From a bacterium (GTDB lineage: Bacteria; Patescibacteriota; Patescibacteriia; Magasanikbacterales; GWA2-37-8), in contig JBDROJ010000023.1 of the NCBI GenBank assembly GCA_043810165.1, forward strand, positions 4,675 through 68,674: DNA of 64,000 nucleotides. Direction: 5' to 3'. Both the position numbers and the translations under genes were made by a program. Positions 1,112-62,587 of this stretch are shown in pieces (position 1 is the first letter of the stretch; each line of letters opens with the position of its first letter). Below the pieces are notes generated by a model, which did not search any database, was not told the origin of the DNA, and saw only the letters and a list, made by a program, of their open reading frames with translations.

Positions 1112-1384
1112 AGCACTTCTCCTTTTTAGGGAAATTGGTTGATTCGGCGGATATTGGTGAACGAGAAGATATATTTGATTATATACTCTCTCGTTCACCA
1201 ATATCACGATTTTAAAGAACTAAAAAACCACCTGCGCGGTGGTTAATGATCTATGTAATACGCAAAATCACTAACTCACCGCTGAGTGGTTAATAACAAT
1301 GTTAATAATAACATTATATTGCGATTTTATATATTCCATAGTATTAATATATTAACACAGTGATGGTTTTCGTCAAATGTTAAT

Positions 1385-1393
1385 TGTGGATAA
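1385..1393 (-). other. perfect DnaA box TTATCCACA (reverse complement of tgtggataa)
   Basis: Exact 9-mer. One of five perfect copies in the window. Confidence 0.5.
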
Positions 1394-1403
1394 GTTGAAG
1401 TAT

Positions 1404-1440
1404 TGTTCGGGCCCCCGGCGTCTATCCGGGGGCCCGAACA
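1404..1440. promoter_or_regulatory. 15-bp perfect GC-rich hairpin (tgttcgggcccccgg / ccgggggcccgaaca, 7-nt loop)
   Basis: Read directly from the sequence. Lies between the minus-strand ORFs 1469..1654 and 944..1111. No U-run follows, so it is more likely a processing or stability element than a simple terminator. Confidence 0.5.
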
Positions 1441-1468
1441 GAACCGCGAACATCCCCCTTGCTTGCCT

Positions 1469-1654
1469 CTAGTCTCTCCAGTGATCTGCCCATTTCAGCA
1501 TCTCGCTGGAGAATCTTTCCAATGCCATGGCCTGCGTTTCGATCATCTTGATGATGCTCACCAGGGCAAGCCCGCGTACGGCGTCGCGATCGTCCCTAGC
1601 TCGTGCCAGTTTGGATTGCAGACGCACCATATTGCCGTAGTATAGTTCGGTCAT
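1469..1654 (-). CDS. hypothetical small helical protein (61 aa), first gene of the island A mini-operon
   Basis: Track ORF. SD aggagag 6 nt before the ATG. A consensus sigma70 promoter lies upstream on the minus strand. GC-rich. Confidence 0.45.
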   Translation of the reverse strand: MTELYYGNMVRLQSKLARARDDRDAVRGLALVSIIKMIETQAMALERFSSEMLKWADHWRD

Positions 1655-6900: not shown

Positions 6901-7419
6901 GTGAATAGAAATATTTTGGTGCAGGATGAGAGAAAGGTAAGACGCCTACTTCATCTTTGTAGACTAATGCAGGCGGTGTCTTTTTCAACCAAAGACATAA
7001 ATCATGAATTAGCTCGTAGAGTTGGGTATAAAAATAAGCATACGCTTGTAAATGCTATACGTCTATCTGCTTCATGGCGAAGTGTTGAGGAATTGGATAA
7101 ATATCCTTTCACCAAACCGAGCGATAGATTTATACTCAATACAGATCCCAAGAAAGATCCTGAGAGTGGGGATTATGTCACCGTACATAACTTTGTATGG
7201 AGAGACGAAGCACTTAGAAAAAGTGGTTTCATAAATGAGGAAGGCCAGCCTCTCATAGAACTACCTATTCCGAGCGAGATTGTTACTCACGCAGAAAGAG
7301 TAGCTGGGTGGTTGTACAAAAAAAGTCCTACTTACGTTTTGAATGCATTAATTGGTAATCCAGCAGAAACATTGAGTTTATTGCATGAAATGCGGAAGAG
7401 AGGTAAAAATGAAAGTTGA
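6901..7419 (+). CDS. hypothetical protein (172 aa), GTG start with GGAGG SD
   Basis: Track ORF. ggaggtgtcagGTG. No recognisable domain. Flanked by repeat copies B and C. Confidence 0.5.
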   Translation: MNRNILVQDERKVRRLLHLCRLMQAVSFSTKDINHELARRVGYKNKHTLVNAIRLSASWRSVEELDKYPFTKPSDRFILNTDPKKDPESGDYVTVHNFVWRDEALRKSGFINEEGQPLIELPIPSEIVTHAERVAGWLYKKSPTYVLNALIGNPAETLSLLHEMRKRGKNES

Positions 7420-14169: not shown

Positions 14170-16296
14170 ATGAAATTGAATTTTAAATTAAAATTATCAA
14201 TTTGGCTTCTGCCTTTACTGGCTGGTTTTGTGTTGTTAAATTCGGCTAAAGCTAGCGAGTTTACCCCGCCAGAGGCCAAATATTTCAGTTATCAAGCTCG
14301 ATATTATAGCCAATCAATTGAGGATCCTATTACCATGGAAGCCGGCAGTACAAAAGAAGTGGTAGTTAAATTCAAAAATTCCGGGCAAAAGATATGGCCG
14401 ACTGATGGATGGAATTATGTTTCAGTTTATACGGTTAATCCTAATTATGGAGCCAGTGATTTGGCAGATCCAAGCTGGCTAAGCGATTATCATCCCATAT
14501 TGATTAGTAAACAAACTGCGCCCGGAGAAATCGGGGAATTTAAAATTAAATTAAAAGCACCGGACAAAATTGGAGAGTATAAACAAGATTTTAATTTAGC
14601 GGTTGAAGACTCCACTTGGATTAAGGGTGGTTATTTTTTTCTTAAAGTCAAAGTAATTCCGGCCAAGCCAAAATATAATTTTACCAAAGAATTGAATGTG
14701 GGCGATGACGGAGAAGAAGTAAAACAATTACAGTTAAAATTAAAAGAATTGGGTTATTATACTCATTCAGAAATAACCGGATATTATGGTGATTTGACGA
14801 AGCAGGCTGTGGTTGAATTCCAAAAAGCAAATAAATTAGAACCTTATCCAGGGTTTGTAGGTCCTGGCACAAGGGCAATTTTGAATAATATGTCTGACGT
14901 CGGTAAGGTTGAGAAGAAAGAAGCTCAATCGGCTGTTGTCCCCATTTCAACAAGTCAAAAAGACAAAGAGGTTGTGCAATTAAATAATGATTATCAAGCC
15001 GACATTATTGGGATTACAAGCAATCGTATTGAAGTCAAAGGAGGTCAACGAGTCAATTTTAAAGTGATATATAATAATTCCGGTGAAAAAACTTGGAATC
15101 AGTATGTTTTGCGCGAAGCCGGCAGTCAGGCCAGCACCAGTATATCCATAGCCAGCGTAAAAGAAATTAGTTTGGCTGATGAAACTTGGCTGACCGATAA
15201 AAAGGTAGTGAGTGGCAGTGGTGTTATAGCTCCGGAAGATGTTTTACGAGTAGCTTTTAATTTTCGCGCGCCAGCTAAAAAAGGAGTATATATAGCTAGG
15301 TTTGATTTAAATATTGATGGGCATATTTTAAATGGAGGCAGTCTGGAAATTCCTGTGATTGTGACAGAAGATGCGCCAACTAATTATCAAGCTCCGGTTT
15401 TATCCGCTGACCTTAGCAATCGAGATTTAATTAAGGAGCCTGATATTAAAGTAGGATTGTATAGCAGTGAAGATCCGGTCAAAGTAAAATCGCCTGTTAC
15501 TTATTTAATATATTCAGGAGATGAATACCGCGGTTTGTTGGTTCCTAACACCGAAGCGATTTTAAGTTATAGTAACGGGATTTATAAATACAAAAGCGTA
15601 GGCCTTGAATTCACCAGTAATAAGCATTTACGTTTGATGCCCGGGACAGCGGACGGGTATTTTATTCTGCCCGAATATGTGCGCACAGTTTCATGGCGAG
15701 GCGACAAAAGCTTCAATGCTTATCGCGGTATTTTGGAATATATTTACTCTCCGCGTAAAAATATACCATATATTGTAAATGAATTGCCATTGGACGCATA
15801 TGTTGCAGGAATAGCTGAAACTTCAAATGAAGCACATGCTGAATATGCCAAAGCTATTTTGGTGGCGGCTCGTAGTTATGCTTATTACAGTATTAATAAT
15901 GGTACGCCAAAAGACCAGCGTACCTTTGATGTTTATGGTAGCACAGTAGATCAATTATATTTGGGGTATATTTCTGAAACATTGATGCCACGCATAGTGC
16001 GGTCGGCCAAAGATACTTACGGAGAAATGGTAACATATAATCGTGAACCTGTTATTACTCCATATTTTGGCCATTCTGACGGAATTACGCGTACCTGGAA
16101 GCAGGTCTGGGGCGGTAGTGATAAACTTTGGATAAAACAAGTTAATTGCGAATATGACCAAGGACTGAGCATGTATGGCCATGGTGTGGGAATGAGCGCA
16201 CGCGATGCATCTTATCGCGCCGGTAAAGATGGTTGGGATTACAAGAAAATATTAAAATATTATTATTCAGGAGTAGAAGTGGAGAAAATTTATTAG
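14170..16296 (+). CDS. secreted SpoIID/LytB-domain protein with a peptidoglycan-binding (PG_binding_1-like) domain
   Basis: Signal peptide (MKLNFKLKLSIWLLPLLAGFVLLNSAKA). LKLKELGYYTHSEITGYYGDLTKQAVVEFQ is a PG-binding repeat. The C-terminal ~300 aa has SpoIID/LytB motifs (LDAYVAGIAETSNEAHAEYAKAILVAARSYAYY, YGEMVTYNREP). Confidence 0.75.
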   Translation: MKLNFKLKLSIWLLPLLAGFVLLNSAKASEFTPPEAKYFSYQARYYSQSIEDPITMEAGSTKEVVVKFKNSGQKIWPTDGWNYVSVYTVNPNYGASDLADPSWLSDYHPILISKQTAPGEIGEFKIKLKAPDKIGEYKQDFNLAVEDSTWIKGGYFFLKVKVIPAKPKYNFTKELNVGDDGEEVKQLQLKLKELGYYTHSEITGYYGDLTKQAVVEFQKANKLEPYPGFVGPGTRAILNNMSDVGKVEKKEAQSAVVPISTSQKDKEVVQLNNDYQADIIGITSNRIEVKGGQRVNFKVIYNNSGEKTWNQYVLREAGSQASTSISIASVKEISLADETWLTDKKVVSGSGVIAPEDVLRVAFNFRAPAKKGVYIARFDLNIDGHILNGGSLEIPVIVTEDAPTNYQAPVLSADLSNRDLIKEPDIKVGLYSSEDPVKVKSPVTYLIYSGDEYRGLLVPNTEAILSYSNGIYKYKSVGLEFTSNKHLRLMPGTADGYFILPEYVRTVSWRGDKSFNAYRGILEYIYSPRKNIPYIVNELPLDAYVAGIAETSNEAHAEYAKAILVAARSYAYYSINNGTPKDQRTFDVYGSTVDQLYLGYISETLMPRIVRSAKDTYGEMVTYNREPVITPYFGHSDGITRTWKQVWGGSDKLWIKQVNCEYDQGLSMYGHGVGMSARDASYRAGKDGWDYKKILKYYYSGVEVEKIY

Positions 16297-16313: not shown

Positions 16314-16322
16314 TGTGGATAA
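16314..16322 (-). other. perfect DnaA box (tgtggataa), with an adjacent near-box tgtggacaa
   Basis: Exact 9-mer in the SpoIID-rpoB intergenic region. Confidence 0.5.
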
Positions 16323-35360: not shown

Positions 35361-35394
35361 AAAAATCGCCCGAATTCAATCCGGGCGATTTTAA
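35361..35394. terminator. bidirectional terminator aaatcgcccg-aattcaat-cgggcgattt
   Basis: 10-bp stem between convergent ruvA and pyrF. Confidence 0.6.
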
Positions 35395-35406: not shown

Positions 35407-36177
35407 TTATTGTGATGATCGTTGTTGGTATGCTTTCCAGCCAGCCTCACGATATTTTTTTGCTTCGGCTAGTGGGTCGTCAGCTTGATAGATTCCGCGA
35501 CCCACAATGATAATATCACTTCCTTGATTTGTAATGACTTTTTCCGGCGTATTGTATTGTTGACCTAGATCATCTTCTCCGACAGCCATTTTAACTCCGG
35601 GTGTAAAGTTGATAAAACTAGGATCATCAATCAATTTACGCATGGTAATAAAGCCAATCACGAAATCTTTATTGTCCCGGGCCATTTTTAAAGTTTCTTC
35701 AGTATAACTTCCTTTGGCTAGATTGCCTTGAGAACTCATCTCGGCCAAGAGTAATAGTGCTCGTCCTTTGTGCATGCCGACTTCTTTGAGGCCTTCAATA
35801 ATTCCAGGTCCTGGTACTGTATGAGTATTAATGATATGCGACCAATCAGCAATATGATAAATGCCGTCTTGATATTGATGTTTGACTGTATTACCAATAT
35901 CGGCGAATTTACGATCTTCAAATAATAAAAATTCATGTTCTTCAGCCAATCGTTGAAGTTCAATGACCAGATCCATATCAAAGTCTTCAATAATATCAAT
36001 ATGGGTTTTTAGCACGCAAATTTCCGGACCCAAGTCTTGAGCAATTTTAATTAATTCGGATTTGGTTGTAACGTCGGCGGCAATACATAGATTGGTTTGT
36101 TTTTTTTCCATTAAATTAAGAAGAATTTTGGCAGTTTGATTTATGCACTGTTGGGCACGTTCAGCATAAGTGGCCAT
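35407..36177 (-). CDS. pyrF: orotidine 5'-phosphate decarboxylase (long, URA3-like type)
   Basis: [13 protein letters not shown] active-site motif. Confidence 0.9.
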
Positions 36178-36181
36178 AATG

Positions 36182-36787
36182 TTATTTTTTAACTTGATTT
36201 TCTTGAATAAATTTTATGGTGTTGTCATAAGCGATCTGATCAATTTTTTGATTTTCTAATAAAGTGTTTAACAGTTCGGTCATAGTGAATACCGTATGTA
36301 GATAATAGCCCTTATTGGCCAGGTTTTCTTTTCCTCCTTGTTCACGATCCAATAGCACTACGACATCAGTGACTTTTAAGCCCTCATGTTCGGTTGGTTC
36401 TATGGTTTCAATTACACTAGAGCCACTGGTAACCAGATCTTCTATAATTAAACAATTTTGTCCAGGTTCAAATACTCCTTCAATGGCTTTTTTAGTGCCA
36501 TAGTCTTTAACTTCTTTACGGCGCATTACCATTGGCTTGTTATGTTCTAAAGATATGGCTGTGGCAATCGGCAAGGCAGTATATGGCACACCCGAGATTA
36601 GATCAAAATTTAGATTTTTTACTTTTCCCCACATGATTTCTCCTATTGCTTTTAGAATTTCCGGATAAGAAATGGTTACGCGCAGATCAATATATATAGG
36701 CGACATGATTCCGCTCTTGAGTTTGAATTCGCCGAATTTTAAGGCGTTAATTTCATGGAGCTTAAGAATTAGTTCTTTTGTATCCAT
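36182..36787 (-). CDS. pyrE: orotate phosphoribosyltransferase
   Basis: PRPP-binding motif [12 protein letters not shown]. Confidence 0.9.
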
Positions 36788-36798
36788 ATATTTTTTTG

Positions 36799-37614
36799 TT
36801 AGAAGTTAATAATTTTTCCGCTTTTATCACGGTGGTATTTTCCAAATTCAGTTATTTGATTAGCCAGTTCACGTTTAACCACTGGTCCATGTGTACACAT
36901 GCAAATACCCAGAGGATCAACCGCACATTGGCCACAGATGCCGTATCCGCATTTCATATAGCGTTCAATACTAACCTCACAATCCACATCATATTGATTG
37001 CATAAGTCAAGCACTTTTTTTTCCATTAGTTCAGGGCCACAGGTGCAAACCAGAGTTTTTTGATCATTGTTTTCGCATAGTAGAGAATTTAAGATGTCTG
37101 TAACATAACCGTGGTGGCCTTGGCTTCCGTCGTCAGTAGAAATGTGTAGCTTGGTGTTTGGTGTTTTATTAATTTTGTCTTCAAATAATAGCAAGTTTTT
37201 GCTTCGAGCGCCAATTAAAAAATCTATATTAGATCCTTGCTGGGCTACTTGTTCAGATAAATTATTTAGTGGAGCGGCGCCATATCCGCCAGCTACCATA
37301 ATATAGTGTGTGTTAGGTTTGATTGAGAAGTTGGTTCCGTATGGTCCTGTAATACCAGCTCGGTCGCCAACATTCATGTCAAATAGTTTTTCAGTTAAAG
37401 GTCCTCGTTTAAAAATAGTCAAACCAAATTTTTCGCCGTCATCGTGAGCGATAGAAAAAGGTTTTTGGTCTATTCCAGGTATCCAGAGCATTACAAATTG
37501 GCCAGGCTGGCTTTTTAATTGGTAATCAAAATAAAAAGTTTTGACTTGGGGATTTTCGTCAACTATCTCAGTAATTTTTATGTGTTTTGGTTGGTCCATA
37601 TCACTTGTGTGCAC
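36799..37614 (-). CDS. pyrK: dihydroorotate dehydrogenase electron-transfer subunit
   Basis: FAD/NAD-binding fold plus a C-terminal 2Fe-2S cysteine cluster (CGYGICGQC). Confidence 0.85.
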   Translation of the reverse strand: MHTSDMDQPKHIKITEIVDENPQVKTFYFDYQLKSQPGQFVMLWIPGIDQKPFSIAHDDGEKFGLTIFKRGPLTEKLFDMNVGDRAGITGPYGTNFSIKPNTHYIMVAGGYGAAPLNNLSEQVAQQGSNIDFLIGARSKNLLLFEDKINKTPNTKLHISTDDGSQGHHGYVTDILNSLLCENNDQKTLVCTCGPELMEKKVLDLCNQYDVDCEVSIERYMKCGYGICGQCAVDPLGICMCTHGPVVKRELANQITEFGKYHRDKSGKIINF

Positions 37615-38515
37615 AGCCTCTTATTTCATCTAAATTACCTATTCCTTCTTTTTTCATGATTTCTTGCATCTCATTGGTTATTTTTTTAAACACATCTTCG
37701 CCACGGAAATACACAGCTGAACCAACGCCTAATAGAGTTGCGCCAGCCATGATCATGGCTAGAGCATCTTCGCCGGTGGTGATACCCCCGGTGCCGATGA
37801 TAGGGATTTTGACAGATTGATAAATACTATAGACACAGTTCAAAGCGATTGGGAATAAGGCTGGTCCAGAAACACCGCCTTGTTTGTTGTGTAGTACGGG
37901 TCGTCGGCTATGGATATCAATACTTATGCCACTGATTGTGTTAACGGCCACAATTCCATCGGCTCCAGCAGATTCAGCGGCCTTAGCGATTTCAGTTATA
38001 TTCCAGGCATTGGGTGAAAGTTTAGTTAATACTGGTACAGTGGATTTTTCTTTGACTTTTTTTGTAATTGTTTCAACCGCTTCAACCGAATAGGCAAATG
38101 GTTTGCCAAATTCTTTCATTACATTGGGGCAGGAAATATTCACTTCCAAAAAATCAATCGGTGCCTGACAAATTTTTTCTGCTGTCTCGCCAAATTCGTC
38201 AAAACTACCAGCAAAAATACTGCCGATCAATGGTGCGTTGCAAACCTGTTTGAATTTTTCCAATTCAGGCAAAACATTATCAACTCCTGGGTTGGATAGG
38301 CCAACTGCATTAATAAAATAATGTTCAGTTCCCATCATGGTGGGGTTGGGGTGGCCGGGGCGCGTATCTTTGGAAACTGATTTGATGGTAATACCGCCAC
38401 AACCGTTTTTAACTGCGTTTTTCATGCAAGCAGAAGTCACACCAAGAATTCCCGAAGCTAAAACAACGGGATTATCAAATTTTTTGCCTAGAAATGTTGT
38501 TTGTAGCATAGACAC
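37601..38515 (-). CDS. pyrD: dihydroorotate dehydrogenase catalytic subunit (class 1B)
   Basis: TIM-barrel DHODH motifs (GLSNPG, active-site Cys in NISCPN). Confidence 0.9.
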   Translation of the reverse strand: MSMLQTTFLGKKFDNPVVLASGILGVTSACMKNAVKNGCGGITIKSVSKDTRPGHPNPTMMGTEHYFINAVGLSNPGVDNVLPELEKFKQVCNAPLIGSIFAGSFDEFGETAEKICQAPIDFLEVNISCPNVMKEFGKPFAYSVEAVETITKKVKEKSTVPVLTKLSPNAWNITEIAKAAESAGADGIVAVNTISGISIDIHSRRPVLHNKQGGVSGPALFPIALNCVYSIYQSVKIPIIGTGGITTGEDALAMIMAGATLLGVGSAVYFRGEDVFKKITNEMQEIMKKEGIGNLDEIRGCAHK

Positions 38516-39472
38516 CTATTGTACCATATTTTCTTTTCCTAGCAACCACATTATTATGCCTTTTTGCGCGTGCATGCGATTTTCAGCTTGGTCAAAGATT
38601 ACTGAATTGGGATGATGAACAGCACTTTTGGTAATTTCATAACCAATATGACAAGGCATGCAGTGCATTATTTTAGCCTGCGGGGCATATTTTTCAATCA
38701 GTTCAGTGTTCAATTGGTAAGGCATAAATTTTGCTTTTCTTTGTGCAAATTCCGTTTGTTTTTCCGGTCTTACCTGCCCGTCAGCAAAAAATTCCATGTC
38801 CATCCAAGTATCAGTATGTATGTAATCAGCTCCGGTTAGAGCTTCTTCTAGGTCTAAATTTTTAGTGACGAGTCCTGTACTTTCTGCCTGTTGATCTAAT
38901 TCAACATCAATACTTGGTTGATTAATTTCCGGCGCTACTATATGAATTTTGATGCCTAGTTTAGTGCACATTAGTTTTAATGTATTGGATACATTATTTT
39001 CAATACCTAACCAAACAACCTTTTTGATGTTCTCTACGCCATTAGAATTTTCAATCATGGTTAGAAGATCGCTTAAAGCTTGAGCCGGATGATATTTTTC
39101 ACTGCAAGCATCAATTACAGGTATTTGATTTTGCGAAGCCGCTAATTCAACGTCATCTGCCTTCATGGCTCTAAACATTAGTATATGTCCGAAACGCATA
39201 ACCGCTTTGATCTCATCGTCAAAGTCAGTTAGAGAAAACTGCGTAGTTTTTGAATCCACAAAAATGGCGTGTCCTCCCAGCTCGGTCATGCCAGTTTCAA
39301 AAGATAATCTAGTTCTTGTAGAACTTTTTTGGAATAACATTACCATTGTTTGGTTGGGTAGATAATTTGTTAGTTCGCCGGCTGTCCGTTTAGCCTTAAT
39401 CTTTTGGGCTACATCCAAAATTTTCAAGATTTCCTCTTTGCTTTGCTCCTTGAGCGAAATGAGATGTCTCAT
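38516..39472 (-). CDS. argF: ornithine carbamoyltransferase-like transcarbamylase, embedded in the pyr cluster
   Basis: STRTR carbamoyl-phosphate motif and an HCMPCH motif resembling the OTCase HCLP (versus HPLP in ATCase). A separate bona fide pyrB is at 41208..42131. Confidence 0.55.
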   Translation of the reverse strand: MRHLISLKEQSKEEILKILDVAQKIKAKRTAGELTNYLPNQTMVMLFQKSSTRTRLSFETGMTELGGHAIFVDSKTTQFSLTDFDDEIKAVMRFGHILMFRAMKADDVELAASQNQIPVIDACSEKYHPAQALSDLLTMIENSNGVENIKKVVWLGIENNVSNTLKLMCTKLGIKIHIVAPEINQPSIDVELDQQAESTGLVTKNLDLEEALTGADYIHTDTWMDMEFFADGQVRPEKQTEFAQRKAKFMPYQLNTELIEKYAPQAKIMHCMPCHIGYEITKSAVHHPNSVIFDQAENRMHAQKGIIMWLLGKENMVQ

Positions 39473-39488
39473 ATGATATATTTAATTA

Positions 39489-40694
39489 TTAACATTTATA
39501 TAATTTATTATTTAAAACAGTGTAAACTGGCCAACCAGTTAATTCCCATCCATGGAATGGAGACCAACCACATTTGGTTTTTAAATTTTTGTTTTCTACT
39601 TTTTTAACTAGATTTAAGTCCACGATTACCTTGTCGTTATTATTAGGTAGATTGAATATCTTTTGTATATTCGTTCTAGTTAATTTTATTATTTTTTCTA
39701 AACTGATCTTATTCTGGCTATGGGCATTTAATAATAATGGTAACAGTGTTTCTATTCCTGGCACTCCAGACGGGGATTGTGGATATGGTTTGGCTTTTTC
39801 TTTTAAACTATGAGGCGCATGATCAGTGCCAATTGTATCAATTACACCATCACCAATGGCCTGCCACAAGGCCCGTTGGTCTTCTAATGTACGTACAGGC
39901 GGGTTCATTTGTGCTTTGGTGCCCAACTGATCATAATCATCCTCTGTTAAAAATAAGTGATGCGGAGTAACCTCGGCGTATACTTCAATGCCACGATTTT
40001 TAGCTTGTTTAATAATTTCAATTTCTTCTTTTGTGTTTATATGACAAATATACAATTTAGTTCCATATTTTTCAGCCAGTTCAACGGCTTGTTTAACTGC
40101 TTTAGTAGCTGCTTGGCGGTCACGAATTTTCGAATGCATTTTTACGTTATTAGAATCAGTATAATTCTCTTGAATAATAGATTCGTCCTCAGCGTGTACA
40201 GCCACAACCAGATCTGACGCAGTCGCAGCTTTAAACACTTTAGCTTGGTCCTCTTTTTTATTTACTAATAGGTTGCCAGTGCTAGATCCCATAAATAATT
40301 TTATACCAATGATTTCATTTTTTAACAAGCTATATGTATCGTGGTTGTTTGGGGTTGCGCCAAAGTATAAATAAAAATTTAGAGGCATGTTTACCTCCTT
40401 CAATTGTTTGTTGATGATTACTTGTTTACTTTTAAGGCTATCCGAATCAATCGTGTCTGGAGAGTTGTTTGGCATGTCAAAAACAGTAGTAATACCACCA
40501 GCAATTGCTGTTCGAGCTCCGGTTTGCCAATCTTCTTTGTATTCTTGTCCGGGTGTGCGAAAATGAACATGTGGATCAATTAAAGCTGGTAAGATTGTTA
40601 AGGCCGAGCCGTTTATTGTTTGGTGTTTATCATCGTCGATAGTGTAATCGAGCTTTCCTCCAGTAGCGGTATTTAGTTTCTCAATACGAGTCAT
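39489..40694 (-). CDS. pyrC: dihydroorotase (amidohydrolase family)
   Basis: DPHVHFR and DHAPH metal-binding motifs. Confidence 0.85.
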   Translation of the reverse strand: MTRIEKLNTATGGKLDYTIDDDKHQTINGSALTILPALIDPHVHFRTPGQEYKEDWQTGARTAIAGGITTVFDMPNNSPDTIDSDSLKSKQVIINKQLKEVNMPLNFYLYFGATPNNHDTYSLLKNEIIGIKLFMGSSTGNLLVNKKEDQAKVFKAATASDLVVAVHAEDESIIQENYTDSNNVKMHSKIRDRQAATKAVKQAVELAEKYGTKLYICHINTKEEIEIIKQAKNRGIEVYAEVTPHHLFLTEDDYDQLGTKAQMNPPVRTLEDQRALWQAIGDGVIDTIGTDHAPHSLKEKAKPYPQSPSGVPGIETLLPLLLNAHSQNKISLEKIIKLTRTNIQKIFNLPNNNDKVIVDLNLVKKVENKNLKTKCGWSPFHGWELTGWPVYTVLNNKLYKC

Positions 40695-40695
40695 A

Positions 40696-41160
40696 TTAAT
40701 TATTTTTGTACTCCCTGATTTCTTTCTGCATGAATATTTTTTCGCAATAATGACACTGTAATTTCATATGATCACCATTAGCGATAACTTTAAAGACTGT
40801 CTCAGTATCATCATTGTTTGTAATACATTTAGGGTTGGGGCAAACAACTACATGCTTAATTTTTTTTGGGATTTTTACTTGACTTTTTTTAATTACTTCG
40901 TAATTTCTAATAATATTAATAGTGGCATTAGGTGCCAAAATAGCTACTCGATCAACTTCTTCATCAGTCAATTCACGTTCTTCTACCTTGATTATATCTT
41001 TGACTTTATCACTTTTTTGGCTGTGTAAATTTAATCCAACCGTGACTGTCTTGCTAAGCATTGGCAGATTTAAAATACGAATTATTTTTAAAGCGTTCTC
41101 AGTATAAATATGATCAATGACCGTACCATCTTTGATGGCTGAAACTAATAGAGTTTTCAT
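40696..41160 (-). CDS. pyrI: aspartate carbamoyltransferase regulatory subunit
   Basis: C-terminal Zn-binding Cys cluster (CPNPKC...CHYC). Confidence 0.85.
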   Translation of the reverse strand: MKTLLVSAIKDGTVIDHIYTENALKIIRILNLPMLSKTVTVGLNLHSQKSDKVKDIIKVEERELTDEEVDRVAILAPNATINIIRNYEVIKKSQVKIPKKIKHVVVCPNPKCITNNDDTETVFKVIANGDHMKLQCHYCEKIFMQKEIREYKNN

Positions 41161-41207
41161 AAGCGAATGGAATGAATAAGATTATACCTTGGCATAATCT
41201 TAATTAA

Positions 41208-42131
41208 TTATTGTAATTTACCTAATACCAAACCCAGCAAGGCTTGTCTGACATATAAACCATTTTCAGCTTGTTCAAAGTAGTAAGCGTGACTTGTTGT
41301 ATCCACATCAGTAGAAATTTCATTAACTCGAGGTAGGGGGTGCATGATTTTTAAATTAGATTTAGCATTTTTAAGCATATCAGCTTCAAGTATAAACACA
41401 TTTTTGATGCGTTCGTATTCCATGGGGTCAGCAAAACGCTCTTTTTGTATACGGGTCATATAGATAATGTCAGTTTTATCAGTAATGTCCTCTATTTTTT
41501 CATGTAGGGTAAAATTGATCCCTTTTTCTTTTAGTTCGTTGCAGATATATTCTGGCATTTGTAGTTCTTTAGGAGCAACAAAGTATAATTGACAATTAAA
41601 ATGTGTTAGAGCTTGGGCCAAAGAGTGGACGGTACGGCCATATTTTAAATCACCTACCAAGGCAATGTGTAATCCATCAATTTTTTGTTGGCATTCTTGG
41701 ATAGTGAACAGATCAAGTAAAGTTTGGGTGGGGTGCTGGTTGGCTCCGTCTCCGCCGTTAATGATTGGTTTATCTGTGGATTCAGTTGCGCGTCTGGCCG
41801 AACCCTCGATTGGATGGCGCATGGCGATCACGTCCACATATTGACCAATGATTCTCATAGAATCATAAATAGATTCTCCTTTTTTAGCTGAAGTAACTCC
41901 GGCTTGAGCAAAACCCACTACACTTCCACCCAATCTCTCCATAGCAGTTTCAAATGATAGACGCGTGCGCGTGGATGGTTCAAAAAAACAACTGCCCATT
42001 ACCTTGTTTTGTAGCAATTGCGGTTGTGGGGTCTGTTTAAGTATTTTAGCCTGCCCCAATATGTGTAGGATCTCATTTTTATTTAGATCCTTGATGGAAA
42101 CGATATCTTTGTTGGTAAAATCCATATGCAA
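41208..42131 (-). CDS. pyrB: aspartate carbamoyltransferase catalytic subunit
   Basis: STRTR, HPTQ and HPLP motifs. Confidence 0.9.
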
Positions 42132-42149
42132 GATAGATGAATTAATAAA

Positions 42150-42186
42150 TTTTTTTTAAAAAAATAGCCACTCCTCACGGAGTGGC
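42150..42186 (-). terminator. intrinsic terminator gccactcc-gtga-ggagtggc + U-run, 25 nt upstream of the pyrB start and downstream of argH
   Basis: 8-bp GC-rich stem followed on the minus strand by tatttttttaaaaaaaa. Confidence 0.65.
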
Positions 42187-42192
42187 CGATTG

Positions 42193-42234
42193 CTAATTAA
42201 GATTTTCAATTGTGTATAGGTAGGTATATTTCAT
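42193..42234 (-). CDS. candidate pyr leader mini-ORF MKYTYLYTIENLN (13 aa), essentially leaderless
   Basis: Hand-translated. ATG is ~14 nt downstream of a TATACT -10. Stop codon is 6 nt before the terminator stem. Confidence 0.25.
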   Translation of the reverse strand: MKYTYLYTIENLN

Positions 42235-42248
42235 AGGCTCTGTTACAG

Positions 42249-42277
42249 AGTATAGCAGAGTACCTGGCAGTGGTCAA
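42249..42277 (-). promoter_or_regulatory. sigma70-type promoter TTGACC - 17 nt - TATACT upstream of the pyr leader/pyrB, with a DnaA box at 42287-42295 just upstream
   Basis: -35 is the reverse complement of 42272-42277; -10 of 42249-42254. Confidence 0.5.
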
Positions 42278-42286
42278 ATGTCGACT

Positions 42287-42295
42287 TATCCACAT
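42287..42295 (+). other. perfect DnaA box TTATCCACA
   Basis: Exact 9-mer. Confidence 0.5.
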
Positions 42296-42312
42296 ATTTT
42301 GGTCACTCTTTG

Positions 42313-43611
42313 TTATTTTAATTTTTGTATTTGATGCTCATAGTGTTCAAGATTTAAATTCCCAGGTGCCCCTAGGCTGATTTTTGTTTTAATATTTTGT
42401 TCCATATTAATATTTGTACTATCTAATTGGTCCATGGCTTGGCAGTAAGCATCTCGAAAAGATAGTTTTTTTTGTATCACCATATCATTGGCAATATCAG
42501 CAGTAAAGATCTCTTTGCTGATAGTTTTTTTGATTTTTTCTTGATTGGGTTTAGTGCCTTGTATAAATAACTGAACTATGAGCAGGCTTTTTTTAATTAT
42601 ATCCACACTTTCTATTAGTGGTTTTTTAATTAATTGCAAATCTCGATGATAGCCCGAGGTGGTATGGGTAACTAGATGTTTAATAGTATTCTGGTGTGAA
42701 ATCATCACACTGATATTGGCTCGCAGTATCTCCATGGCGTCAAGATTTTTCTTTTGTGGCATAATACTAGAACCAGTAGTGAACTGTTCTTCTATAGTAA
42801 AGAAACCAAATTCTTGGCTGGTGAATAAAATCAAATCATTGGCGAATTTACTCAGAGTCATCATAACTTGTAAGAGACCTTCTAAAAATAGGCTTTCAAA
42901 TTTACCTCGACTGTTCTGGCAATACAAGCTATTGATTTGAATATTTTTGAATCCTAATTCAGCTGTGGTCAAATGTCTGTCTATGGGTATGGATGTACCA
43001 AAGCCGGCTGCGCTACCCAAGGGATTTTTATCGATGGCATCAAAAATATCTGTCAGGGTTTTGTGGTCGTCTAATAGGCTTTCTACAAAACTGGCATAGT
43101 AATGTCCCAGACTGCTTAACATGGCCTGTTGGGTATGAGAATAGCCGGGCAGAGGAATATTTTTGTATAGTTTAGCTTTCTTTAGAAACATTTCAGCAGT
43201 TTTTAATACTTCAGCATTGGTATTTTTTATCATGTCTTTCATATATAATCTTAAGGCAACTAATACCTGATCATTTCTACTTCGGCCAGTGTGGATTTTT
43301 TTGCCAACCACTCCTAGTTTGTCAGTTAGGTATTTTTCAATAACCGTATGACAATCTTCGTCAGCCAGAGCAATTACTATCTCATCATTTTTGAATTTTT
43401 GTTCAAGTTCAGTTAAACCAGAACACAACTGTTCCAATTCATTTTTATCTAATATTCCGGCCTGTTCCAGTGCTTTGGCATGAGCTTGGCTAGCTTGAAT
43501 ATCATAGGTCATTAATTCTTTGTCCAATATATGGTCTTGGCCAACCGTGTATTGTTCAACCAATGGGTGAAGTTTGGTTTGGTTTTTTTGCCACAGTTTT
43601 TGTTTGTTCAT
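42313..43611 (-). CDS. argH: argininosuccinate lyase
   Basis: Fumarase/aspartase-family signature GRSRNDQV. Confidence 0.9.
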   Translation of the reverse strand: MNKQKLWQKNQTKLHPLVEQYTVGQDHILDKELMTYDIQASQAHAKALEQAGILDKNELEQLCSGLTELEQKFKNDEIVIALADEDCHTVIEKYLTDKLGVVGKKIHTGRSRNDQVLVALRLYMKDMIKNTNAEVLKTAEMFLKKAKLYKNIPLPGYSHTQQAMLSSLGHYYASFVESLLDDHKTLTDIFDAIDKNPLGSAAGFGTSIPIDRHLTTAELGFKNIQINSLYCQNSRGKFESLFLEGLLQVMMTLSKFANDLILFTSQEFGFFTIEEQFTTGSSIMPQKKNLDAMEILRANISVMISHQNTIKHLVTHTTSGYHRDLQLIKKPLIESVDIIKKSLLIVQLFIQGTKPNQEKIKKTISKEIFTADIANDMVIQKKLSFRDAYCQAMDQLDSTNINMEQNIKTKISLGAPGNLNLEHYEHQIQKLK

Positions 43612-43615
43612 ATAA

Positions 43616-44890
43616 TTAATTTTTTAGTAATTCATTTTCGTAATTATATACATTGTAAGCTGTTTTTTGTGGCAAGTTCCAGATCTCAATGAATCCAGGA
43701 GAAGCATTTTGATTGAATTTAGGATTTTTGTCAAAAGTAGCTAGATCTTTGTCAAACAAAGAGTATGGGGATTCCAGAGCAACCACATCGATATTTCCTT
43801 TATATAATTTTACCTTGACTTTGCCAGTCACTTTTTTGTTATGACTGTTTGAAAAGGCATGTATATGATACATGACTGGGTCATACCATTTGGCACCATA
43901 GGTTAGGTATGCCCATTTGTTATCCAGAAATTCTTTTAATTCGTTTTCTTCTCTAGTAGAAACAATCTGTTCCAATTTTTTATGAGCTGAAATTAAGATA
44001 TTAGCGCCCGGGTTTTCATATACACCCCTGACTTTCAAACCAACTACCCTATCTTCAATTAAGTGTACACAACCAACACCGTGTTGCGCGCCAATATGAT
44101 TGCATTCCAAAATAATTCGACTTAATTTTTTAGCTTGGCCATTAACGGCGATTGGCTTGCCTTGTTCAAATTCAATTTCCACTATTTCTGGTTTATCCGG
44201 AGCATTTTCTGGTGTGTTACACCATTGCAATATATTTTCAACAGGTGGAATTAATTTTGGATCTTCGATTTCTCCGCCTTCGGCTGTATTGCTCCACATG
44301 TTTTCATCATAAGAATATGGAGTCTGCTTTTTTTGTTTTATTTCTATCCCATGTTTTTCTGCGTAAGCAATTTCTTCTTCTCTGCCCATGCCCCATTCCC
44401 TTACCGGTGCAATAATTTTTAAATTTGGGTCCAGAGTAGTCATATATCCTTCAAACCTAACTTGGTCATTGCCTTTGCCAGTACAACCATGAGCGATTAC
44501 TTTAATGCCGTGCTGTTGGGCAATTTTAACAGCGGTTTTTGAAATTATCACCCTCCCCAGAGGACAACCCAAAGCATAACCTCCTTGGTAATCAGCATTG
44601 GCCTTGATGGCTTCTGACAATATTATATCGGCAAATTCATCTTTAGCATCATAAACGATTGCGTCGCTAGCACCTAAATCCAGGGCTTTTTGCTTAATTT
44701 CTTCTAAATTATCTGCAGTTTGCCCGATATCTATAGTCAAAGTAACTACTTTGCTGTTGTATTCTTCTTGTATCCATTTAAGCATGACCGAAGTGTCTAA
44801 TCCTCCGGAATAGAGTAATAGGCATTGATCAAAATCTCCTTTTTCAGCTTCATACGAAGCTACTTTTTTGTATTTTGTTTGATTGTCCAT
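43616..44890 (-). CDS. argG: argininosuccinate synthase
   Basis: PP-loop ATP-binding motif YSGGLDTS. Confidence 0.9.
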   Translation of the reverse strand: MDNQTKYKKVASYEAEKGDFDQCLLLYSGGLDTSVMLKWIQEEYNSKVVTLTIDIGQTADNLEEIKQKALDLGASDAIVYDAKDEFADIILSEAIKANADYQGGYALGCPLGRVIISKTAVKIAQQHGIKVIAHGCTGKGNDQVRFEGYMTTLDPNLKIIAPVREWGMGREEEIAYAEKHGIEIKQKKQTPYSYDENMWSNTAEGGEIEDPKLIPPVENILQWCNTPENAPDKPEIVEIEFEQGKPIAVNGQAKKLSRIILECNHIGAQHGVGCVHLIEDRVVGLKVRGVYENPGANILISAHKKLEQIVSTREENELKEFLDNKWAYLTYGAKWYDPVMYHIHAFSNSHNKKVTGKVKVKLYKGNIDVVALESPYSLFDKDLATFDKNPKFNQNASPGFIEIWNLPQKTAYNVYNYENELLKN

Positions 44891-44913
44891 ACATTTGTTG
44901 CTTGTGTTAATTA

Positions 44914-44947
44914 AATAATTAAAAAACTTCTGGGAGCTCCAGAAGTA
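44914..44947 (-). terminator. intrinsic terminator cttctgg-agctc-ccagaag + U-run, ~25 nt upstream of the argG start codon
   Basis: Minus strand reads acttctggagctcccagaagttttttaatt. Confidence 0.6.
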
Positions 44948-44974
44948 AATGTGGTAGTATTGACTAGTTAAAGG

Positions 44975-45043
44975 TCAACGCAAACAACCACGCTTCCGAA
45001 GCGCGTGTTTACGACGACGATTTTGTTTAGTCTTGATAATCAT
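44975..45043 (-). CDS. candidate Arg-rich leader peptide MIIKTKQNRRRKHALRKRGCLR (22 aa), nearly leaderless
   Basis: Hand-translated. Five Arg codons (CGT x4, CGG). A hairpin gcgcttc-g-gaagcgt overlaps the Arg codons. A putative TTGACA - 18 nt - TATGGT promoter lies at 45053-45082. Confidence 0.3.
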   Translation of the reverse strand: MIIKTKQNRRRKHALRKRGCLR

Positions 45044-45087
45044 ACTAGGTCTACCATATCTCATTTCTTAAGAACTTGTCAAATAGG

Positions 45088-45096
45088 TTATCCACA
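45088..45096 (+). other. perfect DnaA box TTATCCACA abutting the gatB stop codon, just upstream of the -35 of the putative arg promoter
   Basis: Exact 9-mer. Confidence 0.5.
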
Positions 45097-46653
45097 CTAG
45101 TTTAATTTTTCTTTTAATAATTTTTCTACTACTTTGGGATCAGCACTGCCTTCAGTGGCTTTCATGGCCATGCCAATTAAGAATTTAATGACCGGTTCTT
45201 TGCCTGATCGGTATTCTTTTACTTGTTTGGGGTAGTTTTTAATAACATCATCAATTATATATCCAATTTTACCCTCGTCACTAACTTGTCCATAGCCTTT
45301 TTCTTCCATAATATGAGTTGGATCTTTATCAGTTTTAGCTTCTATCATTTCATTTAATATTTTTAAAGCATTAGTGGAATTTACTCGCTTTGCATAGACC
45401 AAGGCTATGAGCTCCGCAAAATTTTCCGGCTTGGTTTTTAAATCAGTTATATTAATTTTTTTATCACTCATAGTGCCCATGAGTTTGCTAGTAAGCCAAC
45501 CGCCGGCCAAGCGCGCTAATTCAGTATGTATATTTAATTGATCAATAACACCCTGACCGCCTGTTTTTGTTTCAGGCAAATTTTCTATCCAGTCTGCTAA
45601 TTCGCTCATTACATTTTCAGTATAGCTAGCCCAATGCTTGTCAGCTGCAAGAAGTTCGGCGTCAGAAGGCTTGAGGCCGAATTCTTCACAAAAACGGCCT
45701 CGTTTTTGATGGGGGAGTTCGGGAATGGAAATTTTTCCGGCAATTTTTTTCGGTTCAAAAGGAGGAATATCAGGTTCTGGAAAATATCGATAGTCAGCCG
45801 ATGTCTCTTTACTGCGTTGCCAGTATGTTTGTTGTTTGCCATCATCCCAGCCTCGGGTTTGTTGTTCCCATTTTTCTCCGTTGGCTATCAATTTGGTTTG
45901 CCTATCAATTTCATGGTCTATTGCCTTGGAGATGAAGCGGAAAGAATTGATGTTTTTTAATTCTACCTTAGAATTGAGTTCGTATCCTTTTTTCCCAATA
46001 ATGGCCCCATCCTTTTTTTCTGTTTTTCCGGCTTCTTGCACCGATATATTGGCTTCACAGCGCATGTGGCCTTTTTCCATATCAGCATCGCTTATGCCCA
46101 GGTGGCGGAAAATTAATTGTAATTCTTGACAGTATTTTTTGGCTTCAGTTGCATTTTGAATGTCTGGCTCGGAGACAATTTCTACCAAAGGTATTCCAGA
46201 ACGATTGAAGTCAACAAGAGAATCAGTTTTACTGCCATGTGTAAGTTTGGCTGTGTCTTCTTCTAGGTGTACCCTGGTGATGCCGATTTTAGCTGTGTCA
46301 CGGCTATTTTCACCAGTAGGAAAGGCTAGTTCAATAAAGCCATGTTTGCCTATTGGCTGGTCGTATTGAGAAATTTGGTATCCTTTGGGCAAATCAGGAT
46401 AAAAATAATTTTTGCGGTCAAATTTGCTTTGATCAGCTATATTACAGTTAAGGGCCTTGGCAATTTTTACGGCCCATTCAATTGCTTTTTTGTTAGGTAC
46501 AGGCAAAGTGCCTGGATGTCCCAGGCATATTTCGCAAATATTAGTGTTTGGCTTTTGTTCATCAGGATGGTTTTTGCAACTACAAAACATTTTACTGTTT
46601 GTCTTCAATTCAACGTGAATTTCCATGCCGATTATTGGAACGTATTTTGGCAT
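45097..46653 (-). CDS. gatB: Asp-tRNA(Asn)/Glu-tRNA(Gln) amidotransferase subunit B
   Basis: MPKYVPIIGMEIHVELKT... N-terminus and the GatB/YqeY C-terminal domain. Confidence 0.92.
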   Translation of the reverse strand: MPKYVPIIGMEIHVELKTNSKMFCSCKNHPDEQKPNTNICEICLGHPGTLPVPNKKAIEWAVKIAKALNCNIADQSKFDRKNYFYPDLPKGYQISQYDQPIGKHGFIELAFPTGENSRDTAKIGITRVHLEEDTAKLTHGSKTDSLVDFNRSGIPLVEIVSEPDIQNATEAKKYCQELQLIFRHLGISDADMEKGHMRCEANISVQEAGKTEKKDGAIIGKKGYELNSKVELKNINSFRFISKAIDHEIDRQTKLIANGEKWEQQTRGWDDGKQQTYWQRSKETSADYRYFPEPDIPPFEPKKIAGKISIPELPHQKRGRFCEEFGLKPSDAELLAADKHWASYTENVMSELADWIENLPETKTGGQGVIDQLNIHTELARLAGGWLTSKLMGTMSDKKINITDLKTKPENFAELIALVYAKRVNSTNALKILNEMIEAKTDKDPTHIMEEKGYGQVSDEGKIGYIIDDVIKNYPKQVKEYRSGKEPVIKFLIGMAMKATEGSADPKVVEKLLKEKLN

Positions 46654-62307: not shown

Positions 62308-62337
62308 CAAATACCAAGTTCATAAACTTGGTATTTG
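62308..62337. repeat. 13-bp perfect hairpin caaataccaagtt-cataa-aacttggtatttg sharing its 12-mer arms with the outer inverted repeat of the 34575-34760 element
   Basis: aaataccaagtt and aacttggtattt occur at both loci. Could also act as the Fic terminator. Confidence 0.55.
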
Positions 62338-62587
62338 CGTCAATTTAATATATTTATCAATTCCAATTTTTTCGATAAAGTATCTATCATGAGATACAAT
62401 TATTATGGGAATGGGCTGTGATAAAATAGACTTTTCCAATTCTTCTCGAGTACAGCCGATGTTAAATTTTATATGTTATCTTATTCTGTAATAGTTAAGT
62501 CGTTTATAGTTAATGTTGGTACTAATATATGTAGTAAATATTATATCCGATCAGTTTTCAATGGCAAGGGTAGTTTATTCACCATTG

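Follow-up and report, generated by a model that had tools for sequence, protein, structure and literature searches.

How is the pyrimidine operon controlled in a member of CPR/Patescibacteria, bacteria that cannot be grown alone and encode few regulators? The question is raised by the spacer between argH and pyrB in the 64,000-nt stretch of DNA analysed here (hereafter the window). To our knowledge, almost nothing is known about gene regulation in CPR/Patescibacteria, and our literature search found no paper on transcription attenuation in Patescibacteria. The spacer is 187 nt long, from the argH stop codon (42315-42313) to the pyrB ATG (42125), and all its leader features lie on the minus strand. 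An initial annotation had proposed that it holds a pyrB attenuator composed of a promoter, a mini-ORF and a terminator, and all three parts are present at the minus-strand places assigned to them (Table 1). Given the comparison with relatives described below, we consider it fairly probable that the spacer comprises the pyr operon promoter and a translation-dependent (ribosome-dependent) transcription attenuator. That the input of this attenuator is pyrimidine nucleotide supply is a more tentative proposal, drawn by analogy, which we regard as quite possible but short of probable.

The genes on both sides were assigned by NCBIfam and Pfam. The initial annotation had spoken of pyrB as the controlled gene; pyrB is indeed the first gene, but what follows the leader is an eight-gene operon and not pyrB alone. 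The phosphoribosyltransferase of this operon is PyrE, scoring above its curated cutoff, and no pyrR gene was found in the operon, the region searched for it. Between pyrC and pyrD lies an OTC-like gene (38516-39472, minus strand) with a score just below the NCBIfam ArgF cutoffs (284.9 vs 306); most relatives, among them genomes without argGH nearby, also have it at this place (65-79% identity). The genes upstream of pyrB are gatB, argG and argH. The nearest PyrB relatives, at 67-79% identity, come from metagenome-assembled genomes of Candidatus Magasanikbacteria (Patescibacteria/CPR), and a metagenome scan for closer relatives, intended for measuring substitution patterns in the mini-ORF, detected no PyrB with more than 80% identity. 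The closest syntenic genome, GCA_002778405.1 (L164), shares the gene order thyA-folA-tmk-x-gatB-argG-argH-pyrB. In most relatives gatB is directly upstream of pyrB or of the pyr leader, a place taken by argH in the window and L164; the fetched pyrB loci (L001-L024, L081-L114) showed neither argG nor argH close to pyrB. The presence of argG and argH with a leader of their own (42313-45096) between gatB and the pyr leader, seen only in the window and GCA_002778405.1, points to an arg module that was inserted there (or lost) as a self-contained unit.

Table 1. Positions of the pyr leader, the operon downstream and the arg leaders of other genomes (window coordinates unless a locus is named).
Feature	Position	Strand	Basis or remark
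9-mer TGTGGATAA (TTATCCACA on the plus strand)	42286..42294	-	Equals DnaA-box consensus TTATNCACA; 8 nt upstream of -35
-35 hexamer TTGACC	42272..42277	-	Promoter scan
Extended -10 TGcTATACT	42249..42257	-	Promoter scan
Mini-ORF, ATG to TAG, peptide MKYTYLYTIENLN, 13 codons	42193..42234	-	No Shine-Dalgarno site
5-nt gap CAATC, mini-ORF stop to hairpin	42188..42192	-	Within predicted footprint of terminating ribosome
Predicted intrinsic terminator: 9-bp stem, GTGA loop, A, T7	42158..42187	-	Scan and fold
A8 and AT-rich 24-nt spacer before pyrB	42126..42157	-	No promoter-like or Shine-Dalgarno site
Eight-gene pyr operon: pyrB, pyrI, pyrC, OTC-like carbamoyltransferase, pyrD, pyrK, pyrE, pyrF	35407..42125	-	NCBIfam and Pfam
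Strong terminator after pyrF, closing the pyr operon	35364..35390	-	
arg leader in other genomes	L162:2500-2680; L164:4785-4975; L165, L166, L167 ~1240-1500		

In the window, 17 nt separate the -35 from the -10, and a further 14 nt (CTGTAACAGAGCCT) separate the -10 from the ATG of the mini-ORF, whose codons read ATG AAA TAT ACC TAC CTA TAC ACA ATT GAA AAT CTT AAT TAG. The mini-ORF had been described as leaderless. Its ATG does lie near the transcript start, but given the 14-nt distance, which is greater than in most relatives, the window transcript probably carries a 5' UTR of ~7-8 nt and is thus short-leadered, not strictly leaderless. Past the 5-nt gap, the hairpin GGCCACTCC-GTGA-GGAGTGGCT (42187-42166) comprises nine pairs including one G-U, folds at -17.9 kcal/mol, and is followed by an A, T7 (42164-42158) and A8 (42157-42150). 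The terminator had been placed ~25 nt before pyrB, a figure that counts from the end of the A-run; the pyrB ATG is 40 nt past the end of the hairpin and 32 nt past the end of the T-run. This hairpin is the top terminator in a 12-kb scan and the only terminator after argH, so it can also end the argGH transcripts, as had been suggested.

A promoter and a terminator of this kind, taken singly, are of little weight. Scanning yielded 52 promoter sites against 41 expected and 17 terminators against 9.9 expected; with counts so near expectation, a single match is weak evidence, and significance has to come from comparison. We thus read the regions upstream of pyrB in ~43 distinct relatives. The full unit of promoter, mini-ORF and terminator is present in ~28 of them, four have the hairpin only, located 5-6 nt after the gatB stop, and ~11 have neither hairpin nor leader ORF. 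Those without the unit include loci in which pyrB follows carB within a longer operon, and L024. In L024 and L113/L114, which have no leader ORF or terminator, the pyrB ATG comes 10 nt after a promoter of the form TGTGGATAA-N5-TTGACA-17-TACACT, and pyrB of this lineage appears leaderless and unattenuated. The hairpin-only loci (L010, L087, L089/L091, L090) lack the pyr promoter and the mini-ORF, and the gatB stop stands 5-6 nt before the same hairpin; in this sub-clade, by analogy, translation of gatB would take the role of rph at E. coli pyrE.

The leader-bearing loci were tabulated as a set of 26 (the window and 25 relatives, with L164 outside the set), which share ancestry, and the counts given for them are therefore not independent events. 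An extended -10 (TGnTAnnnT) was found in 25 of the 26 and a -35-like hexamer in all of them, with a spacing of 16-18 nt, 17 in most. An ORF starting with ATG 8-18 nt after the -10 and ending between -4 and +6 nt from the hairpin is present in 21/26 loci. By comparison, shuffled leaders predict this arrangement in 0.26 loci, with a maximum of 5 loci in any of 200,000 simulations. The conservation in relatives that the initial annotation had named as a check was thus found, the promoter, mini-ORF and terminator being kept across Magasanikbacteria whatever the upstream gene. The relatives' ATG lies mostly 9-12 nt after the -10, most commonly at 9-10 nt; their mini-ORFs comprise 11-33 codons, with a mode of 11-13, and in 13 of the 26 loci precisely 5 nt separate the stop from the hairpin. 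Five of the 26 depart from the arrangement: the ORF enters the hairpin in L011 and L013 (as it also does in L164) and ends 11 nt ahead of it in L014; the ORF of L001 begins a long way past the promoter, and that of L023 meets no stop codon ahead of the hairpin.

The arrangement is conserved far better than the letters. All 25 of the 25 hairpins folded are stable (-7 to -22 kcal/mol) and have four to eight consecutive T behind them; their stems are of many different sequences. These values come from per-sequence folds, used because a MAFFT alignment of the hairpin region, which was not structure-aware, gave only 3 pairs with RNAalifold. A blastn search with the window leader found a similar hairpin in a single relative, L003, and otherwise the primary sequence has diverged. 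L164 retains the unit, although its peptide, MTHYILKSKQTTIIKTESHSH, is a different one. Between the members of two close pairs, L005/L008 and L007/L084, every one of the seven ORF substitutions (7/7) changes an amino acid and none breaks the frame, which fits selection on the act of translation rather than on the peptide product.

The divergence of peptide and leader also bears on whether the unit might be an independent small gene, specifying an ~80-nt trans sRNA or a functional 13-aa peptide unrelated to pyrB control. A promoter, a short transcript and a terminator are the anatomy of an sRNA gene. However, neither the peptide nor the leader sequence is conserved, the unit always has the orientation of pyrB and usually lies 12-51 nt from its ATG, and no other promoter for pyrB is visible; we regard such a gene as very improbable. 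Just as hard to credit is that pyrB is driven by a promoter overlapping or following the terminator, with the upstream unit irrelevant to pyr expression. The region after the hairpin is AT-rich, where -10-like hexamers are easily found, but no promoter-like site between hairpin and pyrB was scored in the window scan, no conserved motif is visible there, and only 12-16 nt separate hairpin and ATG in L020, L013, L019, L011 and L023. With no promoter after the hairpin and a gap of only 12-26 nt in most relatives, the operon must be read through the terminator, in agreement with what had been claimed for pyrB. The gap itself is longer in L014 (3830-3990), L016/L102, L083/L086, L092 and L106, where an insert of 100-180 nt separates the pyr terminator from pyrB; these inserts carry inverted-repeat elements, e.g. 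ccctcccctatgaggggaggg...ccccctcatagggggagg, and may be small mobile repeats.

Reading through a terminator by means of a translating ribosome requires that the mini-ORF be translated without a Shine-Dalgarno site. Of 48 gene starts checked in the window, nearly all lack such a site, with one GGAGG at 6901. The genes at 14170(+), 12289(-) and 54209(-), as well as a 107-aa ORF near 320(-) (~322), start 9-10 nt after an extended -10, and leaderless or near-leaderless mRNAs seem to be a normal mode of expression in this organism. Thus, the commonest ATG spacing of the relatives' mini-ORFs is that at which real genes start. The start site, the translation of the mini-ORF, the termination and the read-through are nevertheless all predictions from sequence.

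The alternative of an attenuator that works without translation, in which a protein or RNA acting in trans, a start-site choice sensitive to nucleotides, or reiterative transcription would determine read-through, is in our view improbable. It would suit a mini-ORF that has no Shine-Dalgarno site and whose translation is predicted only, and T-runs do occur right after the -10 in a few relatives (L107, L110, L013). These start-site T-runs, however, are inconsistent across loci, and a frame that stays open from the ATG until no more than 6 nt from the hairpin, seen in 21 of 26 loci where 0.26 would be expected, argues for translation. Also against this alternative, Rfam searches of the whole window at the gathering score and of 41900-45300 at E<=10 gave chance matches only, neither of them matching a PyrR site or a known leader family, and the operon has no pyrR.

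Taken together, these features enable us to propose a putative mechanism for the translation-dependent attenuator. Polymerase coming from the pyr promoter would halt at the terminator by default and pass it only once a ribosome stands at the stop codon of the mini-ORF. The ribosome would load on the 5'-proximal AUG, and the peptide that it makes would have no role of its own. Once at the stop, its footprint would cover the 5' arm of the hairpin, the hairpin could not close, and polymerase would enter pyrB. A ribosome protects ~10 nt beyond its A site. In a published test, a stop codon placed 5 bp before the terminator tR2 lowered termination from ~90% to <10%, and only when translated; the 5-nt gap from stop to hairpin is the optimum reported there for repression of a terminator by the ribosome (PMC4824070). 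From the 5-nt gap, the reach of the ribosome and this test, we infer that a ribosome finishing the mini-ORF would mask the hairpin. Whether it arrives in time would be set by the speed of polymerase over the G-free stretch, composed of U, C and A only, before the hairpin. In E. coli pyrBI and pyrE, low UTP slows polymerase, the ribosome catches up and pyr expression rises. Here too, low UTP, and perhaps low CTP, would slow polymerase, let the ribosome catch up and raise pyr expression.

The composition of the leaders was examined with respect to this input. Across the family, positions -25 to -6 relative to the hairpin contain 40% T vs 29% (Wilcoxon p=0.005), and positions -15 to -7 contain no G. 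Such a T-rich, G-free tract fits, by analogy, a polymerase speed set by UTP or CTP. The window is a weak example, as its own tract before the hairpin has 35% T and a longest T-run of 2. Over the whole leader, U (32%) is close to the genomic level, and the clearer biases are high A and low G. The leaders average 9% G, leaving nothing available to pair with the C-rich 5' arm of the hairpin; no antiterminator or alternative fold was found, the terminator being the only stable element of the leader fold. The 25 leader peptides show an excess of F (1.8x) and K (1.5x), which reflects UUU and AAA codons, with no strong amino-acid enrichment and no conserved sequence. Amino-acid sensing by a trp/his/leu-type attenuator was rejected, given that the 25 peptides contain no regulatory codon run and the leader no alternative fold.

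The weak U-tract of the window would suit an unregulated insulator, an explanation that we consider unlikely, though less so than the others. In that case the main function of the hairpin would be to end transcripts of the operon before it (argGH in the window, gatB in relatives), compactness of the genome would be the sole reason for the pyr promoter standing upstream of the hairpin, and the mini-ORF would let pyr transcripts pass at a fixed rate and sense no metabolite. It is consistent with the hairpin being the only terminator after argH or gatB, and with the loci L010, L087, L089 and L090, which keep the hairpin behind the gatB stop in the absence of promoter and mini-ORF. Against it, the unit persists in L022 and L110 despite a separate terminator after gatB, the T-rich, G-free tract is a family-wide bias, and in E. 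coli pyrE this geometry is proven to sense pyrimidines. We therefore keep to the ribosome-dependent attenuator as the preferred reading.

A second promoter-proximal ORF belongs to the argG leader (45096-44918, minus strand), 2.8 kb upstream of the pyr leader. This leader has the form TGTGGATAA-N5-TTGACA-18-TATGGT with an ATG 9 nt later, and its ORF, MIIKTKQNRRRKHALRKRGCLR, contains CGT CGT CGT (RRR). It is structured (z = -3.4), and 35 nt separate its terminator from argG. The combination of RRR and a subsequent terminator before argG was found in six genomes, the window and five with different upstream genes (Table 1). In folds mimicking a ribosome stalled at RRR, the terminator gave way to an antiterminator in 3/6 genomes, the window not among them. 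The argGH leader is a candidate arginine leader-peptide attenuator; our literature search found no published Arg-codon leader for argG. The conservation of RRR would be hard to explain unless promoter-proximal ORFs are translated.

The promoters of the pyr and arg leaders share the 9-mer listed in Table 1. Copies in the window are located at 42286-42294, 45088-45096, 1385-1393, 1729-1737 and 16314-16322. With at most one mismatch and in either orientation, a DnaA-box-like 9-mer lies 5-14 nt upstream of the -35 in 23/26 pyr loci, and it is present at arg-leader promoters in 5/6 genomes. The sequence TGTGGATAA occurs 23 times in 378 kb against ~4.7 expected (~5-fold excess), 15 of the 23 occurrences being at pyrB promoters, and other promoters in the same loci are without the 9-mer. 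This distribution points to a putative binding site for a regulator, possibly DnaA; no paper on a DnaA box at pyrBI was found in our literature search. Elsewhere in the window, at ~1385-1740, a GC-rich stretch in this AT-rich genome carries a long perfect hairpin (gttcgggcccccgg...ccgggggcccgaac) and is flanked by two DnaA-like boxes in opposite orientation; Rfam gave no match for it, and it contains no convincing ORF. At 62330-62420 on the minus strand lies a remnant of an ABC-ATPase gene (...PIPIIIVSHDRYFIEKIGIDKYIKL...), followed by a terminator. The site at 62333-62312, considered as a third promoter/mini-ORF/terminator unit, was rejected, since it sits in this remnant in another frame (...IIIVSHDRYFIEKIG...) and is 320 nt from the next gene.

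If borne out, the pyr leader would be a concrete, testable regulatory device in CPR/Patescibacteria and near the smallest conceivable ribosome-dependent attenuator, at ~80 nt and 11-13 codons and with neither a Shine-Dalgarno site nor an alternative fold. Its layout amounts to a rule by which genomes can be scanned: an extended -10, an ATG within ~12 nt, a short ORF, and a stop within 6 nt of a terminator. A far broader generalization, which we hold to be speculative and rather doubtful, is that Magasanikbacteria, and perhaps other CPR, run their few biosynthetic operons by minimal attenuators consisting of a near-leaderless ORF of ~12-22 codons and a terminator, the pyr version reading nucleotides via polymerase speed and the arg version reading Arg-tRNA via RRR, from DnaA-box promoters. 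If it were true, the synthesis of pyrimidines and arginine would be under direct control of the replication initiator, in organisms that possess very few transcription factors.

Among known systems, the Bacillus PyrR attenuators likewise have a terminator within the leader of a pyr operon, but differ in that here the Rfam searches found no PyrR-binding loop, and there is no antiterminator/anti-antiterminator and no pyrR in the operon. The leaderless sensory ORFs of Actinobacteria, such as the mycobacterial polycysteine sORFs (bioRxiv 10.1101/834739) and the leader peptides of amino-acid operons in Corynebacterium, open a biosynthetic operon as its first cistron. Like the pyr mini-ORF they have no Shine-Dalgarno site, and they begin at the 5' end of the transcript or beside it, a position predicted for the pyr mini-ORF as well. 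In contrast to the pyr mini-ORF, which has no codon run and a terminator as its target, those ORFs sense an amino acid via codon runs, and the mycobacterial one controls how the following gene is translated, by exposing that gene's ribosome-binding site. The construct of Li et al. 2016 (PMC4824070) shares the 5-bp distance from stop to hairpin, but is a synthetic E. coli test system and not a natural element.

The initial annotation had compared the leader with that of E. coli pyrBI, and this holds for gene context but not for geometry. As in pyrBI of E. coli and Salmonella, a promoter, a dedicated leader ORF, a stretch that is U-rich across the family (weakly so in the window) and a terminator precede pyrB, which follows within 40 nt, and there is no alternative structure. 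PyrL, however, is 44 codons long, starts behind a Shine-Dalgarno site at an ATG 25 nt past the -10, and continues across the hairpin to stop 3 nt before pyrB, whereas the window ORF of 13 codons stops before the hairpin. The classical pyrBI/PyrL form is found in Vibrio, Aeromonas and Paludibacterium loci. Homology to gammaproteobacterial pyrL leaders was rejected, as blastn-short against 103 non-CPR loci gave matches of A/T-runs only.

The E. coli rph-pyrE attenuator, reportedly UTP-sensitive and translation-coupled, is closer. In both systems an upstream ORF stops 5 nt before an intrinsic terminator preceding a pyrimidine gene, with TGA-ttttt-AAGGCGACT...T8 in E. coli and TAG-caatc-GGCCACTCC...T7 in the window, and in both there is no antiterminator and a ribosome at the stop masks the hairpin, as predicted for the window. 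The loci L010, L087, L089 and L090, in which a real gene, gatB, stops 5-6 nt before the hairpin, have the exact rph arrangement. The differences are that the E. coli leader is a full-length gene, rph, whereas that of Magasanikbacteria is a dedicated ORF of 11-13 codons at the transcript start without a Shine-Dalgarno site; that the controlled gene here is pyrB, the first of eight, and not pyrE; and that there is no sequence similarity. The pyr leader of Magasanikbacteria is thus most likely a pared-down relative of the pyrBI and pyrE attenuators of E. coli, and the logic of pyrE and pyrBI would recur in a very distant lineage, possibly by convergence. As judged from these comparisons, the leader most closely resembles rph-pyrE in geometry, pyrBI in gene context, and the leaderless sensory ORFs of Actinobacteria in its start.
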